A stretch of 64,000 bases of DNA from a virus. Every line of letters begins with the position of its first letter. Position 1 is the stretch's first letter. A model generated the notes under the pieces. The model ran no database searches. It saw nothing but the letters and a program-made list of their open reading frames with translations, and had not been told where the DNA came from. The stretch covers positions 1-64,000 of the IMG/VR virus record IMGVR_UViG_3300010885_080919; one strand, 5' to 3'. Of the stretch, positions 17,752 to 51,242 are shown one piece after another. The position numbers and the translations under genes are program-made.

Positions 17752-18129
17752 TCATTTCAACCAGTTTAAAAAACTGGATTTTTCTTTATACCCTTTATTC
17801 CTTTTTAATACTTCTTCGTCTTTATCGATCAGCATATAATCTGGAATAGTTTTTACATTGAATTTCTTAGCAAGCTCTGGGTTTTCGTCTATATCGACCT
17901 TCAAAACAATGTAGTTATCCATTTTGTTGACAACGTCAGGATCCTTAAACAAGGATTGCATTTTACTGCAGTAACCACACCAAGATGCTCCAAAATACAA
18001 GAAAATTTTCTTTTCAGTAGATTTAGATATAGTGGTAGCATCTATATAACTCGTCACTTCCTTGGACAACGCATTTTGCCCTAAAAACATCAAATAATAT
18101 AAAAACAGTGATAAACACACATTTTTCAT
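17752..18129 (-). CDS. Thioredoxin with N-terminal signal peptide
   Basis: FGASWCGYC, VKTIPD; hydrophobic N-terminus; GGAGG RBS before MKNVCL. Confidence 0.9.
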   Translation of the reverse strand: MKNVCLSLFLYYLMFLGQNALSKEVTSYIDATTISKSTEKKIFLYFGASWCGYCSKMQSLFKDPDVVNKMDNYIVLKVDIDENPELAKKFNVKTIPDYMLIDKDEEVLKRNKGYKEKSSFLNWLK

Positions 18130-18224
18130 TAACACCTCCTTGGTTAATGTGTACATAATATATATTCAATTCGATATATATATTCATAATGTACCTTTAG
18201 GCGATGCTAAACATGAACGTAAAT

Positions 18225-20751: not shown

Positions 20752-22437
20752 GTGTTTAGTTTCAAAATATGGCTAGAAAATCATGTGCGGGATAATCCAG
20801 ATCCTTTTGTTGTTTTGGATTTGCCTAAATCGGCTTCCCAAAAAGAAGTCGAACAACAATACAAAAAATTAAGTATGCTTTACCAAAGACGTATTCCAAC
20901 TATGTCTGCGATTAATAAAGCTTATGAAAAAATAAATCAAGGATTAACTCACAAAACATCTCCAGAAACTCCAGAAACTATCCCAGTTGCTAATAGATTT
21001 AACAACAACAATAATTATTCTATTCTTGATGCTCGTTCTAAAATGATTGATTATACACCTGGTCAAAAAAAAGCATTACTAGAAATTCAAAAAATTATTG
21101 ATGGCAGTGAATCTGCGGTATCTTCTATTGCAAAACATTACCTACTAGCCGGATATGCAGGTACCGGCAAAACAACCCTTGCTGAAAATATAGTCAGATA
21201 TAGTATGTCTAAAGGAATGAAAGTTCGTGTCATAGCACCCACAAACAAAGCAGCAATGATTCTTAGCGAAAAACTAAGAGAATCAGGTGTAAATCTTAAT
21301 CCTGACTCGATCAGTACTATCCACAAAACAATATACGGAACCCCAGCATCATATTACAAAGACCGTCTTAACTGGGAGTTATCCTCTGGTCATGTTATTA
21401 ATGATACTGTATTTATCATAGATGAGTCATCTATGATAAACAAAACTACTATGAACGATTTATTAGAACTAACTAAATTTCATCATAATGTTTTGATTTT
21501 TATGGGGGATAGCTATCAACTACAACCAGTAGGACAAGATGCCGGATTGTTTCACGGAAATGTTTCTCAAATAGGGAGCAACAAAAGCGAACTGAAAGAA
21601 GTCAAACGACAAGCATTAGATAGCAATGTTTTAAAAATAGCGACTCTGGTTAGAGGTGACGCCAAACCCTACATACCATCAGAATCTATAGAAAATTTTA
21701 AGGTTTGCGAAACAAAAAAAGAATTTTTAGACAATTACAAAGAATCATTAAAAAACAATGAAGATGTAATTATGATTGTCGCTACTAATAAAGAAAGAAT
21801 GTTGATGAATTCGTTTGCCAGAGAAGTAAGGTTTGGCGACAATAAAACAATCTTAAACTCCAAAGAATCATTAATATCCTTGGCTAATTCTGAACATTTA
21901 AAAAACGGCGAAGTATTTACAATAGAAAATTTTAATATTCAAGAAGATATAAATATCGAAGAAATATCATCTAAAATTTATCTAGGTTCAGCAAAAATTC
22001 CTAAAAGTGGTTCGTGCTCAGGAGGTTCTTGTCCACTAGTTTTTATTCCCGACTTTGAAAAACCTGCATTTCCTCACCAATTTTTAATCGATGAATTAAA
22101 AAAAGAAATGTGGAAAGGAAACGGAAAATCTATTTTGTTAGAAAAATTAAAATCTAACAATATGATAGAAAATTCCGATGCTGGAAAAATAAAAATCAAT
22201 AAGGATACCGTGATCGCAACCTACGGCTATGCAGTCACAGCACATAAATCACAAGGATCACAATGGAAAAAAGTTTTCATTTACCAAAACTTCATGTCAG
22301 ATACATGGGATAATACAAGATGGTATTACACAGCTATTACTAGAAGCACAAAAGATGTTATCGTACTTAACTCAGGAAACAATATTCTTATTAGTCAAGA
22401 AGAAATAAATCAAAAAATACAAAATATTACCATTTGA
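20752..22437 (+). CDS. SF1B Dda/RecD-like helicase with N-terminal J-domain-like region
   Basis: GYAGTGKT, IAPTNKAA, IIDESSM, GDSYQLQPV, YGYAVTAHKSQGS, YTAITR. Confidence 0.9.
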   Translation: MFSFKIWLENHVRDNPDPFVVLDLPKSASQKEVEQQYKKLSMLYQRRIPTMSAINKAYEKINQGLTHKTSPETPETIPVANRFNNNNNYSILDARSKMIDYTPGQKKALLEIQKIIDGSESAVSSIAKHYLLAGYAGTGKTTLAENIVRYSMSKGMKVRVIAPTNKAAMILSEKLRESGVNLNPDSISTIHKTIYGTPASYYKDRLNWELSSGHVINDTVFIIDESSMINKTTMNDLLELTKFHHNVLIFMGDSYQLQPVGQDAGLFHGNVSQIGSNKSELKEVKRQALDSNVLKIATLVRGDAKPYIPSESIENFKVCETKKEFLDNYKESLKNNEDVIMIVATNKERMLMNSFAREVRFGDNKTILNSKESLISLANSEHLKNGEVFTIENFNIQEDINIEEISSKIYLGSAKIPKSGSCSGGSCPLVFIPDFEKPAFPHQFLIDELKKEMWKGNGKSILLEKLKSNNMIENSDAGKIKINKDTVIATYGYAVTAHKSQGSQWKKVFIYQNFMSDTWDNTRWYYTAITRSTKDVIVLNSGNNILISQEEINQKIQNITI

Positions 22438-22681: not shown

Positions 22682-24082
22682 TCATTCAAACTCCTTCAAT
22701 TCGACTTCATGACCCTGTTCTTTTAATATCTTCATTCTCTTTTTAGAATGTTTTTGCAAATAGTCGTTTATTTCAAACATAAAGTCGTAATAATTTAAAA
22801 TTTCTTTGTCATCTGCTGTTCTCAGCCCTCTTCCCATCCTCTGTACGATTTGATGGTCTGCTTGACCTCCTGCTGCGTTTATAAGATTGTGAATAAAAAC
22901 ATTTATGCCCGTGTTGAAGATCTGTTGAGTAGCTATGGCAACGCACTTTTCTGATTTCTGCAATTCATTTATAACACTTTTTCTTGTTTTAGAATCATCT
23001 TTTCCCTGAACCCAAAGGCTATCTGGAAGAAGACCATGCAAAGAATCCCCATGAGCTATTCTGTCAACCAGAATCAATGTTCTTCCAGTTTGCTGTTTAG
23101 CTAATTTAACAACCATTTTGTGGAAGTACAAAGACTCAGCTATTCCTCTTGTGACTGCATCTAAATAGATATCATGTGGAATCTGAGGCTCTCTTACAGG
23201 ATAAAATATACATTTAGATTTCGAAAGAATGCCACGGTTTTGTAGTTCTGCCGTAGTCAATATGCCAGTTTCTGCTGATTTGACTTTCAAAATTGGACCA
23301 AAATAACCTCTTACACTAAACTTCTGCACATTATCTTTCCCGCCAAATTTAAAAGGGGTCGCACTAACAGCAACCCGAACATCAGCTTCTTTCAACTTCC
23401 TGTACACTGCTTTTGGCAAAGCACTCATCATATCGTGGATTTCGTCCACAATAAGAACTTTTATTTTAGGTAGTAGTTTTTCAACTTTAGCAATCGATTG
23501 TACGCTGGCCACAGTGATCACATTAGGCTTTACCGACCCTCCCCAGACATTTCCAACATTTGGAAATCCCATTTTAATCAATTCGTCGTAATTTTGTTGG
23601 GCAAGACTTAGCCTATTTTGTAGCAGCAATATAGGCGTATTAGGAGCAAGGGTCTTTATAATTCCCAACATTATCAATGATTTGCCAGCAGATGTAGGAG
23701 CAAATATAATTCCTCTTCTGTGCTTGATCACCTGATTGATCAACTCTACCTGATAGTCTCTTAAAATCAGTGATTCATCATTTAAAAAATTCTCACCTAT
23801 GGAGCTAACATCAAATTTTGTCGGAATTCGAGAGTCTTCTACTGTGTATTGTGCGTTATTGTGTTTTAAGACGGCACTTACTTCTGGAAGTAGGCCTGTT
23901 AAGAATTTTCCTTTTTCTATATCAAAAAAATTTATAAATCCGTCCCATTTTTTCATCTTATAGGCACGGTTATGGAAATAATTCTTATCTCTGAATCTGA
24001 GTCTATCCCATAGATCTTTTTTTACAGCGTTGTTATTTGACAAAAAATACGAATAATCGTTAGTTATCTTTAGTATGTTCAT
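22682..24082 (-). CDS. uvsW: UvsW-like SF2 DNA/RNA-DNA helicase
   Basis: KWDGFINFF, LRDYQ, APTSAGKS, DEIH, SATP, QRMGRGLR. Confidence 0.88.
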   Translation of the reverse strand: MNILKITNDYSYFLSNNNAVKKDLWDRLRFRDKNYFHNRAYKMKKWDGFINFFDIEKGKFLTGLLPEVSAVLKHNNAQYTVEDSRIPTKFDVSSIGENFLNDESLILRDYQVELINQVIKHRRGIIFAPTSAGKSLIMLGIIKTLAPNTPILLLQNRLSLAQQNYDELIKMGFPNVGNVWGGSVKPNVITVASVQSIAKVEKLLPKIKVLIVDEIHDMMSALPKAVYRKLKEADVRVAVSATPFKFGGKDNVQKFSVRGYFGPILKVKSAETGILTTAELQNRGILSKSKCIFYPVREPQIPHDIYLDAVTRGIAESLYFHKMVVKLAKQQTGRTLILVDRIAHGDSLHGLLPDSLWVQGKDDSKTRKSVINELQKSEKCVAIATQQIFNTGINVFIHNLINAAGGQADHQIVQRMGRGLRTADDKEILNYYDFMFEINDYLQKHSKKRMKILKEQGHEVELKEFE

Positions 24083-24782
24083 TTTTTAGCTCATATGGAA
24101 ATAGTTTTTTAAATAGGTCTATAACCTCTTCATTTATACATTCTTTATAAAGAATAGGATCAAAATTCATTTTAGAATAATCTTCTTTTGACAATATAGA
24201 CTTCATATACGGGGATATTACTAGATAATACAGGCTTATATTACCAAAATTTATCCAATTGAGCAAGCTAGATTTAAGCTTTTTATAATCCTCTATAGTC
24301 GGATTTGAGCCAATATTTTTTTCAATAAATGTTTTTGTTTTCGAAATCTCATTTATTGCCTTTACAGCTCCTAATCTATTGTATTTCATAGGATTAGCGG
24401 CTGGTGCTTTGATTTTTGAATCAAATCTTTTTTTCCATAATTTCCATCTTTTCCAAGCTTTGTCTCCAACCAAGCACATTGGATCAATTAAAATCAAAGG
24501 GTTGTTTTTCAATTGATATCTTAAAATTTCTAATTGTGCTTGAATATAAATCTTATATTCGCTTTCGGGGATCAGGCCTTTTGTTTCTCTTTGAAGTTTA
24601 TAGCATATTTTGAATATTAGAGATTTTCTAGGATCTCCAGCCTTTAATTTCGTATGTTTGTAGTTTGGAAAGTATTTTTCACATAAAGCTACCCAAATCT
24701 CAGATAGCTGAAAAGCGGATGCTTCTGATTCGTCTAGTTTGTATTTTTCTATAGTAGTCATAGGTTTTCTTCGTTTTGCCAA
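24060..24782 (-). CDS. Hypothetical protein upstream of uvsW
   Basis: Probable TTG start after AAGGAG; overlaps uvsW start. Confidence 0.75.
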   Translation of the reverse strand: MAKRRKPMTTIEKYKLDESEASAFQLSEIWVALCEKYFPNYKHTKLKAGDPRKSLIFKICYKLQRETKGLIPESEYKIYIQAQLEILRYQLKNNPLILIDPMCLVGDKAWKRWKLWKKRFDSKIKAPAANPMKYNRLGAVKAINEISKTKTFIEKNIGSNPTIEDYKKLKSSLLNWINFGNISLYYLVISPYMKSILSKEDYSKMNFDPILYKECINEEVIDLFKKLFPYELKNEHTKDN

Positions 24783-24835
24783 TTGTACGCTCCTTGTCTT
24801 GAATATCAAAATATCTATTTAAAGAAAGAAAAAAT

Positions 24836-24863
24836 TTGACTTTTGATCAGGATTTAGTATATT
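24836..24863 (+). promoter_or_regulatory. Sigma70-type promoter for the putative ncRNA
   Basis: TTGACT-16 nt-TATATT. Confidence 0.6.
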
Positions 24864-24869
24864 GATATT

Positions 24870-25247
24870 GGACACCGAAAGGTGCTTATCTCGTTAAACT
24901 ATATTAAACACTGAGTTGGACGCTCTCTCGTCCTTTGAATTGATGAAGGGCTGTACTCCCTGGATTGAATTCAAATGAAAAAAACTTTGGAGAGCCTGGA
25001 CACGGGTTGAACCTTCGTATCATTACGATCAATGCTTTACAAGCGGCATTCGATCTCCAAATCAATGAAAGTTATATTCAGAACACTAGATTACGGTTTT
25101 CACTTGTCACGAGGAAGTGAAGTGTCTGGGTTTAAGACATTGAATAAGTACACTGATTCTACAGTTAAGATTCTAGACATGGTTCAGGTTATTAGAATAA
25201 CATCTAATAATTGAAATAAACAATTGAATTATTTTCAATTGTTTTTT
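24870..25247 (+). ncRNA. Putative structured non-coding RNA of unknown family
   Basis: About ten helices found by eye (listed in findings), upstream promoter, downstream hairpin plus T-run, no credible ORF. Confidence 0.65.
25218..25247 (+). terminator. Putative intrinsic terminator (AT-rich stem)
   Basis: AAACAATTGAA-TTATT-TTCAATTGTTT followed by TTT. Confidence 0.5.
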
Positions 25248-25329
25248 CTATGAAACATATACAGAACCATTCTGCTTGGTGGAATATGTTATAATTTATG
25301 ATTGTACAATCATACTTTTTTTCAAGAAC

Positions 25330-25357
25330 TTGCAAAAAACTGATTATTTTGTATACT
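25330..25357 (+). promoter_or_regulatory. Sigma70-type promoter upstream of the PolA-like gene
   Basis: TTGCAA-16 nt-TATACT. Confidence 0.55.
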
Positions 25358-25395: not shown

Positions 25396-26706
25396 ATGAA
25401 TCAAGAAGCAATTGATCTTTTTTCAAGCATAAGCAATCAAAGCGTCTTTGTGCTTTTTAATCCTGCCGTTTTTGATTTTACAGATAAAAATTCTCAAAAA
25501 GAGATTCAAATTTATCTTCAAGACGGAAGAAACGTAAACATTGCGTTAACTGAGCAAAACACTCCGTTTATAGCATCGATTTTGAAACTATCGATATTTT
25601 CTAAAGGAATGAAGATCCTTGTTTGGGATTGGAAAAATATAGCCACCTACATTCTGGCCAAAACCAATAAAAATTACATTGTTGATGGGGTTATTATTGA
25701 TTTAAAGATCTTAGAATCATATGTTGGTCGTAAACTAAAACCTCCAAAAAGCTTAAATGAAGCCCTAATTCGACTAAAAGATCTGGTTTCTAGCGGATTA
25801 TGGAAAGAAATAGAACCTATTTATAAGAATCTACATCTTCCACTTAGCACTTTTACAATACCTAGATTAGAAACAACGGCCCTAATAGACGTTTTAACGG
25901 GCAAGAAGGTTTATGCTCACTATGAGATAGATGGACAGGAGAACGGCCGTCTACGGTGCTCACAGGAGTTTAATGAGGGTTTTGTACCTCACGCCATGCG
26001 TCCTCTGGTTAAAGAAAATTTAAAACCAAGGAGTTTTGAAGAATTATTCTTGGTTTTTGATTTTAGAGCCATGGAGGTTTTTATGCTTTCTTGGCTAAGT
26101 CAAGATCCGCTTTTAAAAGAGCTAACAGAGCAGCCAGACATCTACTTCTCGCTATACAGCAAACTCATTGGATCTGAGCCGCAAAAAAAAGATGATAGAG
26201 AATTAATTAAAAAAATGTTCTTGCCGGTTATATATGGTCAGTCGTCCTACATGCTAGGACAACGCTGCAACATCCCGAAAGAAGCTGCAGATTCAATTGT
26301 AGATCGTATAAATTCCTTATTTCCAACTGCTTTGGCTTGGATCAAAAACCAACAAAAGCAGCTACAGGAATTGGGATATTCCAAAGACATATTTGGAAAA
26401 CGCCGAACATTCGATGAAGGTAAAGAATATTTAGTTAGAAATTTCTGTATACAATCACCAGCGGCGGTTGTATGTTTAGAAAAATTAAATCAATTATATT
26501 TTGCCTTTAAAAATAAAACTGATATCGCTTTTACTGTACATGACGGATATGCTGTTTATGCCAATAAAGAAAATTGGAAAGACATATTCAAGATTGGACA
26601 AGAAGTTTTATCCAGTGAAAGTGAACTTTGTCCTAAGTTGCGACTAAAAGTTACATGTCGTGGTGGAAGAAATTTAAATGATCTAAAAACTTTAAACAAA
26701 AGATAA
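25396..26706 (+). CDS. Family A DNA polymerase-like protein, thumb deleted, exonuclease domain degenerate
   Basis: NGRL, motif A DFRAME, motif B RELIKKMFLPVIYG, NFCIQSPAA, motif C VHDG. Confidence 0.88.
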   Translation: MNQEAIDLFSSISNQSVFVLFNPAVFDFTDKNSQKEIQIYLQDGRNVNIALTEQNTPFIASILKLSIFSKGMKILVWDWKNIATYILAKTNKNYIVDGVIIDLKILESYVGRKLKPPKSLNEALIRLKDLVSSGLWKEIEPIYKNLHLPLSTFTIPRLETTALIDVLTGKKVYAHYEIDGQENGRLRCSQEFNEGFVPHAMRPLVKENLKPRSFEELFLVFDFRAMEVFMLSWLSQDPLLKELTEQPDIYFSLYSKLIGSEPQKKDDRELIKKMFLPVIYGQSSYMLGQRCNIPKEAADSIVDRINSLFPTALAWIKNQQKQLQELGYSKDIFGKRRTFDEGKEYLVRNFCIQSPAAVVCLEKLNQLYFAFKNKTDIAFTVHDGYAVYANKENWKDIFKIGQEVLSSESELCPKLRLKVTCRGGRNLNDLKTLNKR

Positions 26707-27327: not shown

Positions 27328-28878
27328 TTGAGAGAGCTAACGCCAGAAGAACAAGCACAGCTAGAAGACCTAACAGATCCAGATGTAATTAAACCTAAAT
27401 TTTCTTGGGATGATACATTTCAAAGAAAATTATTAGGAATGCTTTTGCTTGATCCCCATATGCTTGTACAAGCTATGGACAAAATCAAACCGGAGTATTT
27501 TTCTAATGAGGCTCATGTATCGATTTCTAAAATACTACTTGATCACTTTAAAACTCACAAAGCTATCCCCGAGAAGTGGATTCTTGAACAAGAACTTAAG
27601 AATGTTCTGAAGGACGCAGAAAAGAGCGTTCAATTACATTATTTGTCTGAACTGAACTGCGTTTACGATTATTACGTTCCGGGTTTAGAAGCAAGAGAAT
27701 ACCTGATTGAAAAAGTCACGTATTTTGCAAAAGTCCAAGCTATAAAAATTGCATTTCATTCGTCTCTGGAAAAGATGCAAGAAGCACCTGAAGATGAAAA
27801 GACTTGGAATTTTATTTATGAAAAGCTTCGAGAGGCAATGCTGATAGACCGTTCTTATGAACCTGGTTTAGAATACTTTCTACAACTAGACGAAATGTTC
27901 AGAAGAATGGAAGATGTTTTTGTTGGAAAAGAAAGATTTACTAGCGGTTTTGAAAGTATAGACAAAGCCTTGACTGGTGGTGGTCTTTTTGTCGGTCAAA
28001 TAGCAAGTTGGATCGGTTTGCCAGGAACAGGAAAAAGCTTAGCTCTTGTTAGAGCCGCCGTGCAAAATGTTATTCTTGGTCATAAAGTTTTATATCTAAC
28101 AATGGAGATGGATGAGCTTGGAATTGCACAGCGATTCACTTCTCAATTAGCAAAAGTAGATATTAATAATCTAAGAGATTCTAGAGAACAAATCGAAAAA
28201 ACAATCGCAGACTTCGGCAAAGACAAAGAGGATAAAAATCTTTTACATGTAAAGCAATTTCCTGGCGGCGTTATGGACGTTAACGGCATACGAGCGTTCA
28301 TGGCTCAGCTAGAACTTAGAGGATGGAAGCCTAATCTTCTAATTGTTGATTATGTGGGAGAAATGAAAGATGATCCAACCGTCAAGAAATACGAGTCTGC
28401 ATATAGAATATTGCGAGACTTAAGAGGATTCGGGGTAGAAAAAGGTCACTGCACATTTACCTGCGTACAGCCAAACGCAACAGCGGCAAAGCTTGAAATA
28501 AATCAATATATCGATGAGTCCAACATTGGAACATCTTTTGATCAGTTTAAACCTCTTGATGCTTTTTGGTCTATAAACCAGCAAACCATTGAAAAAGATG
28601 CCGAGATAGGTCGAGGATTTGTAATCAAGCATAGAAATGGTAGAAGCAGATTTCCTTTTAAAATCGGCTTTGATTTTTCTCTTGGCACCTTGGATATGTG
28701 GGAAATATCAGATGATAATTATCGATCTAAAATGAGCATGATACAAGAAAAGAAAACAAACGAAGTTGTCAGTGTAGATGGCTCCACGAAAAACGAAAAG
28801 AAGAAAAGAACATTCAAGCCAAATGCGAGTTTAGAAGGCATTATAAAGCCTATCGATTCAGAAGATTACGAAGCTTGA
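27328..28878 (+). CDS. dnaB: DnaB/gp41-like replicative helicase
   Basis: TSGFESID, GLPGTGKS, YLTMEM, LIVDY, KHRNG. Confidence 0.92.
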   Translation: MRELTPEEQAQLEDLTDPDVIKPKFSWDDTFQRKLLGMLLLDPHMLVQAMDKIKPEYFSNEAHVSISKILLDHFKTHKAIPEKWILEQELKNVLKDAEKSVQLHYLSELNCVYDYYVPGLEAREYLIEKVTYFAKVQAIKIAFHSSLEKMQEAPEDEKTWNFIYEKLREAMLIDRSYEPGLEYFLQLDEMFRRMEDVFVGKERFTSGFESIDKALTGGGLFVGQIASWIGLPGTGKSLALVRAAVQNVILGHKVLYLTMEMDELGIAQRFTSQLAKVDINNLRDSREQIEKTIADFGKDKEDKNLLHVKQFPGGVMDVNGIRAFMAQLELRGWKPNLLIVDYVGEMKDDPTVKKYESAYRILRDLRGFGVEKGHCTFTCVQPNATAAKLEINQYIDESNIGTSFDQFKPLDAFWSINQQTIEKDAEIGRGFVIKHRNGRSRFPFKIGFDFSLGTLDMWEISDDNYRSKMSMIQEKKTNEVVSVDGSTKNEKKKRTFKPNASLEGIIKPIDSEDYEA

Positions 28879-50971: not shown

Positions 50972-51242
50972 GGCCCCATCGTCTAACGGTTAGGACAGCA
51001 GACTTTCAAAAGGGAGTGCCTAAAGAGAAATCTTTAGAGTAGAATCGCTCAAAGTCGGTGAACGCTTTAAAATGCTAATACCGAGCCAAGCCTAAGTGAT
51101 TAGGAAGGTGTAGAGACTTGACGGGCGACACCTAAAGCAACAGCTATGGTGAAGGTAAAGTCCACAGACAAATCGAAAGAGCAACGAAAGTTGCAGTGTC
51201 TAGGTCAATCTGCTAATCGGAGTTCGATTCTCCGTGGGGTCA
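50972..51242 (+). tRNA. tRNA-Glu(UUC); exons 50972-51005 and 51205-51242; CCA not encoded
   Basis: Acceptor GGCCCCA/TGGGGTC, anticodon arm GCAGA-CTTTCAA-TCTGC after splicing, T arm CGGAG-TTCGATT-CTCCG. Confidence 0.9.
51006..51204 (+). mobile_element. Group I self-splicing intron (199 nt, no ORF) in the tRNA anticodon
   Basis: P1 ACUUUC/GGGAGU with U.G at the splice site, P/Q AAAGUCGGUGAA / AAUACCGAG, R GUAGAGACU, S AAGGUAAAGUCC, terminal G. Confidence 0.88.

Follow-up and report, generated by a model that had tools for sequence, protein, structure and literature searches.

RNAs that combine several pseudoknots with covariation of the extent described below are rare; most have proved to be ribozymes or riboswitches, or to form the core of an RNA-protein machine. 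Rfam contains several large and intricate RNAs whose functions are unknown or were found only recently, some of them phage-borne (such as ROOL, GOLLD, raiA, OLE, and HEARO), and none of these is known to covary with an adjacent DNA site. In the replication of ColE1, an upstream segment of RNA II pairs with the template DNA near the origin and fixes a persistent hybrid, and phage T4 uses an R-loop-based initiation in which UvsW-type and replicative helicases take part. T4 DNA polymerase is autoregulated via an operator in its own mRNA, and the family A polymerase of T7 uses host thioredoxin as its processivity factor.

A match between an RNA and both strands of a neighboring site is known from the bridge RNAs of IS110 elements, in which one segment reads the bottom strand on the left of the site and another reads the top strand on the right, the two overlap in a core, and the site adjoins the RNA gene (PMC11208160). 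This match was detected through the covariation between RNA and site (PMC11208160). As far as the literature searched shows, such covariation has not been described outside the bridge RNAs. The main text of a catalogue of viral structured RNAs, which reports 10,006 unnamed candidates (Fremin et al. 2023, PMC10690425), does not mention a DNA polymerase.

Here, we describe a structured RNA that is encoded on the plus strand in the region 24870-25247 of the window, which covers the initial 64 kb of an IMG/VR virus record (98,320 bases, CheckV completeness 20%). It is a pseudoknotted non-coding RNA of no described family, and three of its unpaired segments vary in concert with a unique site that spans about 20 bp. 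The RNA is tied one-to-one to the only recognizable DNA polymerase gene of its carriers, which are huge phages, and the coupling between its loops and the site offers a hypothesis that can be tested by mutation.

Genomic context

The closest long relative of the record is a 381-kb contig that was rated 79% complete. Taken together with the 20% completeness of 98,320 bases, this indicates phage genomes of several hundred kb, and the carriers, a freshwater lineage of huge phages, have genomes of roughly 400-500 kb. The RNA locus lies amid replication genes:

20752-22437: Dda/PIF1-like helicase, near the RNA
22682-24082: UvsW-like helicase, near the RNA
24060-24809, minus strand: open reading frame upstream of the RNA, whose conserved part begins at the ATG at 24761
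25330-25357, plus strand: promoter-like site of the polymerase gene, TTGCAA-16-TATACT, about 40 nt before the gene start
25396-26706, plus strand: family A DNA polymerase of 436 aa (Pfam DNA_pol_A, E 8e-25)
27328-28878: DnaB-like helicase, near the RNA

The Pfam match of the 436-aa polymerase is limited to model positions 104-379, and no other family A or family B polymerase was detected in the four records searched, including the 381-kb relative. A phage-encoded thioredoxin (17752-18156, minus strand) is found near the replication genes; as T7 polymerase uses thioredoxin, it may bear on the short polymerase present here. Both hexamers of the polymerase promoter (TTGCAA and TATACT) are also found upstream of the polymerase gene of the related locus L013.

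The conserved part of the upstream open reading frame (24063-24761, minus strand) encodes a 233-aa protein that accompanies the polymerase in all clades, including those that lack the RNA. No Pfam or PHROGs family was found for this protein. Its predicted structure is good (pLDDT 83.7) and all-helical; Foldseek returned nothing at E <= 0.001 (T4 gp59 appeared only at rank 9, with a probability of 0.21), and the best result of VIA-align (Z 6.3) was to AAA+ lid-like bundles, which yielded no convincing fold relative. Elsewhere in the window, a group I intron is located at 50996-51185 on the plus strand (RF00028, 59.4 bits, E 1.5e-12).

Evidence for a conserved structured RNA

An earlier note, made from the letters of the window, had proposed an unclassified multi-helix RNA at this locus, lacking the hallmarks of tmRNA, RNase P, and introns. 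This interpretation is supported. At the RNA locus, Rfam 15 gave no match at the gathering threshold or at E <= 10, and ARAGORN found no tRNA or tmRNA gene anywhere in the 64 kb. Six related loci had no match in Rfam 15 either, and a blastn search against 50,697 phage records was also without a match. Although ROOL, GOLLD, raiA, OLE, and HEARO resemble this RNA in being large and intricate, none of them matches it at E <= 10. The note had also suggested a comparison of folding energy with shuffles. Folding was only modestly better than that of shuffles (z -2.29 for the plus strand and -3.06 for the minus strand), and folding energy by itself is weak evidence for an RNA.

Comparative data were much more informative. 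The loci of relatives were collected via the polymerase protein, and iterated nhmmer searches revealed that most of them share a conserved segment, about 250 nt long, whose position and strand are constant (24905-25151 in the window). RNAalifold analysis of 15 distinct sequences produced 25 pairs, 20 of which had compensatory changes, and a fuller structure was worked out clade by clade. Two covariance models were used: R1 for the central domain, and R2 with 214 positions and 43 pairs. R2 was trained on clades B and C only, and it recovered the window, a member of clade A, at full length (24944-25152, E 2.6e-11). Pair statistics were calculated on a 14-sequence alignment obtained from R2, with two pseudoknots added to the structure. 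Standard pairs were present in 95.6% of cells, compared with 32-40% when the partners were slid by 1-3 columns. Double changes, affecting both sides, occurred in 41 of the 50 pairs, and none of 500 shuffles matched the observed pairing values. Several pairs are G-U in many sequences, which assigns the RNA to the plus strand only.

The covariation is decisive for the reality of the RNA and proves a conserved fold across 14-24 relatives. It might still be argued that no functional RNA exists and that the conservation reflects DNA signals or chance, considering that the folding z-score is modest and that the plus strand scores no better than the minus strand. However, such a reading has to face the compensatory changes in 41 of 50 pairs, the drop in pairing in the slid-partner controls, and the recovery of the window by a model trained without clade A, which together leave it exceedingly improbable.

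Architecture of the RNA

The predicted transcript is about 380 nt long in this window, and its conserved core of about 245 nt (24910-25152) is organized around a four-way junction, with three or more pseudoknots. The elements of the RNA, all on the plus strand, are as follows:

24836-24863, plus strand: sigma-70-like promoter, TTGACT-16-TATATT, 10/12 matches
24873-24884, plus strand: 5' terminal hairpin CACC-GAAA-GGUG, replaced in relatives by hairpins of differing sequence at the same place
24910-24933, plus strand: 5' domain with hairpin GGACG/CGUCC, in clades A and B only
24934-24975, plus strand: extended hairpin of Px (UUUGAAUU/AAUUCAAA) and Py (AGGG/CCCU)
24984-25072, plus strand: central domain, P2 (ACUU/AAGU) and P3 (GGAGA/UCUCC) enclosing the four-way junction (models R1 and R2)
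24995-25006, 25016-25027, and 25031-25050, plus strand: junction hairpins P4, P5, and P6
25009-25013, plus strand: J4/5 word GAACC, unpaired, same as the first 5 bases of the downstream block
25040-25044, plus strand: core of loop L6, CAAGC, complement of GCTTG in the block (25274-25278)
25062-25143, plus strand: 3' domain with P7, P8, P9, and the conserved joiner UUUAAGA
25087-25098, plus strand: J8/9 internal loop, whose GGUU (25095-25098) complements AACC of the block
25147-25152, plus strand: 3' tail AGUACA, closing the core by pairing with the Py loop
25153-25217, plus strand: variable 3' extension with GGUUC (25181-25185) and a small hairpin (25189-25210)
25218-25247, plus strand: hairpin followed by a T-run, terminator-like

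The RNA is predicted to be transcribed from its own sigma-70-type promoter, whose TTGAC -35 element is retained in L002 and L003; in clade C, TTGACA-17-TATAAT occurs at the equivalent position. Both this promoter and the terminal hairpin/T-run had been noticed earlier and are present. The absence of the latter from the terminator scan can be explained by its A+T-rich stem. The core is also richer in G+C than the surrounding window (0.40 versus roughly 0.32-0.34).

In the 5' domain, the GGACG/CGUCC hairpin was tested separately and showed double changes in 5 of 5 pairs, with 100% of cells paired. Its loop CUC can pair with an upstream GAG to form a small H-type pseudoknot (24910-24933); this GAG/CUC pairing is present in 100% of cells and has one double change (GGG/CCC in L036). 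Px has partial support only. The Py loop CUGUACU (24951-24957) pairs with the 3' tail, and the pairing takes different forms in relatives (GUACU/AGUAC, AUGCU/AGCAU, GCGCU/AGCGC, and GUAUC/GAUAC); the helices between tail and Py loop are 92.9% paired with double changes at every pair. In the central domain, P3, P4, and P6 are 97-100% paired and also contain double changes. P7 (UCAAUG/CAUUGA), which crosses P2 and generates a further pseudoknot, has double changes in 6 of 6 pairs, and P8 (CAGAACAC/GUGUCUG) in 9 of 9; P9 is UUCACUU/AAGUGAA. Many unpaired bases are invariant, and the conserved unpaired joiners include J4/5, loop L6, J8/9, and UUUAAGA.

About half of the helices that had been read by eye from the single sequence agree with this structure. 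Four elements were kept: the 5' hairpin at 24873-24884, the GGACG/CGUCC hairpin (24918-24933), the junction-closing helix with its three hairpins (now P3 with P4, P5, and P6), and UUCACUU/AAGUGAA (P9). Others find no support in relatives. Instead of the proposed GAGT/ACTC, relatives show the pairing of GAG with the hairpin loop CUC and of GUACU with the tail AGUAC, and instead of TATTCA/TGAATA and TGTCT/AGACA they keep P7 and P8. For a suggested pseudoknot between TGAACC and GGTTCA, the partner GGTTC exists in 5 of 6 relatives from clade A; however, this pairing shows no covariation at all and is missing from the other clades. The eye-read list included neither the long-range pseudoknots nor the matched site downstream.

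The core resembles that of group I introns (RF00028) in one respect. Its strand order, P2 - junction - P7 - P2' - P8 - P7', is that of the group I P3/P7 knot, both P2 and the crossing P7 are supported by covariation, and an A-rich joiner of similar length precedes the last strand. Multiple pseudoknots, many invariant unpaired bases, and a true group I intron in the same window would also suit a catalytic role unrelated to the block, either as a ribozyme, for example a group I intron derivative, or as the RNA component of an enzyme made of protein and RNA. On the other hand, three hairpins lie inside one closing helix here, and the group I model of Rfam is silent at E <= 10, whereas the same model finds the intron at 50996-51185. 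Every P7 pair varies, hence there is no invariant G-C in P7 and no G-binding site. The flanks consist of a promoter and a hairpin, with the upstream gene on the other strand, and neither exons, nor a conserved U-G pair at a splice site, nor a terminal G could be found. Because there is no invariant P7 pair, no exon, and no Rfam match, the RNA is not filed as an intron, topology alone being insufficient. A ribozyme reading also disregards the coupling with the block, and we consider it improbable.

Downstream of the core, 21 of 21 loci have a stable hairpin, unrelated in sequence between loci, that terminates 4-18 nt ahead of the block. It is followed by a T-run in some clade A members only, including this window, and most clades have no U-run. 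The linker of clades B and C and of more distant members carries a mini-hairpin with an invariant UUAAAC loop (L016:2285-2320, L022:2185-2215, and equivalents). Its stem of 3-4 bp covaries (GGC/GCC, GGU/ACC, AGC/GCU, and UGU/ACA), and the motif CTCTACTAA follows about 8 nt later; clade A is without both. In L071 (1150-1240), a tandem duplication of about 45 nt, which includes a UUAAAU mini-hairpin, is present in the linker, implying that large length changes are tolerated there.

The matched downstream site

When the stretch separating the RNA from the polymerase gene was aligned across loci, the J4/5 word was found to recur once more per locus, at a homologous position within a short conserved block:

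25264-25283, unstranded: block, consisting of the word GAACC, a 6-nt spacer, and CTTGG; unique in the genome

In this window, the block begins 16 nt past the hairpin/T-run, and across loci it is located 85-200 nt downstream of the core. The J4/5 word equals the block word in 21 of 21 loci, with 7 variants (GGGTC, AGGTC, GAGTC, GAGAC, AAGTC, AGACC, and GAACC, the last at 25009-25013 and 25264-25268 of the window). This concordance includes variants from metagenome loci that were unseen when the idea was formed. For loop L6, the core of which is complementary to the block on its right side, the concordance is 24 of 24 loci, with 3 variants (CGGG/CCCG, CGAG/CTCG, and CAAG/CTTG), and L6 switches even within clades (L009 in clade A, L035/L036 in clade B). 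The third segment, J8/9 on the 5' side of the P8/P9 internal loop, complements the plus strand over the end of the word and the spacer. Its pairs with the block change compensatorily (GAUGCUGAC/GTCAGCATC, GUUGCUGAC/GTCAGCAAC, UGCAGA/TCTGCA, GGCUGA/TCAGCC, GCCGACU/AGTCGGC, and CCCGA/TCGGG), and the complement comprises 5-9 nt in other clades and only GGUU/AACC in this window.

The matched stretches are short (5-7, 4-9, and 4-7 nt). A combined score of 346 was obtained for cognate RNA-block sets, compared with 252 +/- 12 (maximum 298) for randomly re-paired sets; 0 of 5000 re-paired sets reached 346, a result that overstates independence and gives no true probability because the sequences are related. 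We count roughly 4-6 independent switches per segment. The block was unique in the three genomes searched, where other matches remained at the level of reversed-pattern controls, and a k-mer scan of the flanks together with the genome pattern searches revealed only chance-level matches as further sites. Within the RNA alignment, no specific partner column for J4/5 was found. An anti-word that can pair with both J4/5 and the block word occurs in clade A only (GGTTC), and it is absent from L017, L085, and others even if G-U pairs are allowed.

The three relations differ in strand. J4/5 carries the plus-strand sequence and is thus complementary to the minus strand; J8/9 and L6 together form a contiguous complement of 9-14 nt to the plus strand, and the two readings overlap by 2-4 nt. 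Since the RNA matches opposite strands, a single-stranded target, whether RNA or DNA, accounts for one relation only. A melted double-stranded site would explain all three relations together.

This arrangement is comparable to that of the IS110 bridge RNA, which also has internal unpaired segments matching opposite strands of one site, with an overlap, next to the RNA gene. Covarying guide segments for the left bottom and right top strands with an overlapping core are formally found at this locus too, where the target may be DNA or RNA. Sharing the two-strand logic of bridge RNAs through an equivalent pattern (PMC11208160), the RNA could serve as a guide for a recombinase or nuclease, with the 2-4 nt overlap as the place where DNA is cut, nicked, or exchanged between strands, e.g., for integration, inversion, or nick-primed replication. 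The differences, however, are considerable. Pfam and PHROGs assigned no recombinase family, DEDD/IS110 included, to the neighboring genes scanned, so that no counterpart of the DEDD (RuvC-like) + Tnp recombinase is seen near this RNA, and the conserved 233-aa neighbor is all-helical with no clear fold match. The bridge RNA has two internal loops, one for the target and one for the donor, whereas this RNA is built on a four-way junction with three or more pseudoknots and matches one site only, with no second target or donor. It also sits in a phage replication module, and its target could still be RNA. A guide function of this kind therefore seems quite unlikely to us.

Two side observations concern the block and its surroundings. 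Three loci (L079, L080, and L082; RNA at about 970-1250) contain an RNA sub-family without J4/5 and P5, in which L6 (CAAGA) and J8/9 (GCCG) still complement their block (AACCCGGCTCTTGG); what J4/5 contributes could be tested naturally on this sub-family. Between the block and the polymerase promoter of the window, an extended -10-like TGTTATAAT is followed by a perfect palindrome GATTGTACAATC (25289-25310). The half-site GATTGTA is kept in clades B and C, about 17-19 nt past the block, and the element may be an operator or a second promoter.

Possible function in phage replication

Our preferred reading, which is tentative and falls somewhat short of an even chance, is that the RNA docks on the block DNA to open or mark a replication origin. 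The RNA would dock on the block as DNA and capture both strands of a melted bubble, while the hairpin ahead of the block would pause or stop RNA polymerase and keep the folded core beside its target. The resulting open, R-loop-like structure would be the start or control point of phage replication. A more specific version, to which we give less credence, is that the RNA replaces an origin-recognition protein: its loops might pair with both strands of the unique site and hold the duplex open for the DnaB-type helicase and the minimal family A polymerase, in which case the origin would be programmable by RNA sequence.

The setting of the locus among UvsW-like, Dda-like, and DnaB-like helicases and the polymerase is consistent with an origin. 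Cumulative GC skew has its minimum at about 24 kb of the 98-kb record, and in the 381-kb relative a long steady rise starts at the RNA locus (about 70 kb), but transcription also changes direction there, which makes the skew a weak argument. Like ColE1 RNA II and the T4 origin R-loops, the RNA is promoter-driven and lies beside replication genes and a family A polymerase; UvsW-type and replicative helicases are neighbors as in T4, and J4/5 matches the template strand. It differs from both in showing no sequence or Rfam similarity and in being compact, knotted, and strongly covarying. Moreover, only J4/5 of the three matched segments faces the template strand; the other two match the non-template strand, which is not what an ordinary co-transcriptional R-loop does. 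No protein partner of the RNA was identified.

Against docking on DNA, the hairpin has no U-run in most clades, so the block may be transcribed and pair as RNA. The block would then belong to the same transcript, a structured RNA or polymerase-operon 5' leader of 400-550 nt that folds back onto J8/9 and L6 and forms two more pseudoknots. Read-through or the expression of the polymerase genes would be set by a conformational switch in which J4/5 serves as competitor or mimic. A contiguous complement of 9-14 nt (J8/9 and L6) is what long-range RNA pairing typically shows, transcription by the host polymerase probably continues into the block where the U-run is missing, and the covarying stems of the linker mini-hairpins, as judged by eye, suggest selection at the RNA level. 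The element is also always upstream of the polymerase gene, and the autoregulation of T4 DNA polymerase via its mRNA operator is a precedent. Such a leader, however, leaves unexplained the identical variation of J4/5 and the block in the first 2-3 bases of the word. Just 2-5 nt of J4/5 (2 in clade B) are able to pair with J8/9, several clade A members, including the window, have a hairpin and T-run between core and block, and a separate promoter-like site precedes the start of the polymerase gene by 40 nt. We regard a fold-back leader as possible, though on the unlikely side. For a riboswitch, no ligand class could be inferred.

If the target is DNA, as in the docking model, nature would offer a second case, with an unrelated fold, of both duplex strands being read by one RNA, and possibly a replication origin defined by RNA. 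With RNA as the target, it would still be a new large regulatory fold that controls a replication operon.

Distribution and linkage to the polymerase

Two degenerate patterns derived from the RNA were scanned over 2.9 million viral contigs and detected 4 and 18 contigs, every one of which was already known via the polymerase gene. The RNA is single-copy in the 381-kb relative and in a 225-kb relative. Among 27 metagenome loci fetched with the polymerase, 21 contain the RNA, down to 35% polymerase identity, and where present it is always upstream of the 436-aa family A polymerase in contigs of huge phages.

Models R1 and R2 (one run with filters off) found nothing credible in the clade with 59% polymerase identity (L011-L015, L028, and L040), in the 31% clade (L041-L044), or in LR756511.1. 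Polymerase relatives at 31-34% identity are without the RNA, and so is the L013 sub-lineage, yet the polymerase of L013 is 78% identical to that of the RNA-bearing L071. The absence of the RNA from the 31-34% relatives and from one 59% clade implies that it is not essential to such polymerases. A role of the RNA in making up for an absent thumb of the polymerase is not supported, as polymerases of similar length occur without it.

The place of the RNA is taken in the L013 sub-lineage by another noncoding stretch, which is about 600 nt long (L013:1725-2440, and also L011, L012, L015, L028, and L040). It has no Rfam match, is 91% identical among the six contigs, and contains covarying GNRA-type hairpins; it may be another large RNA.
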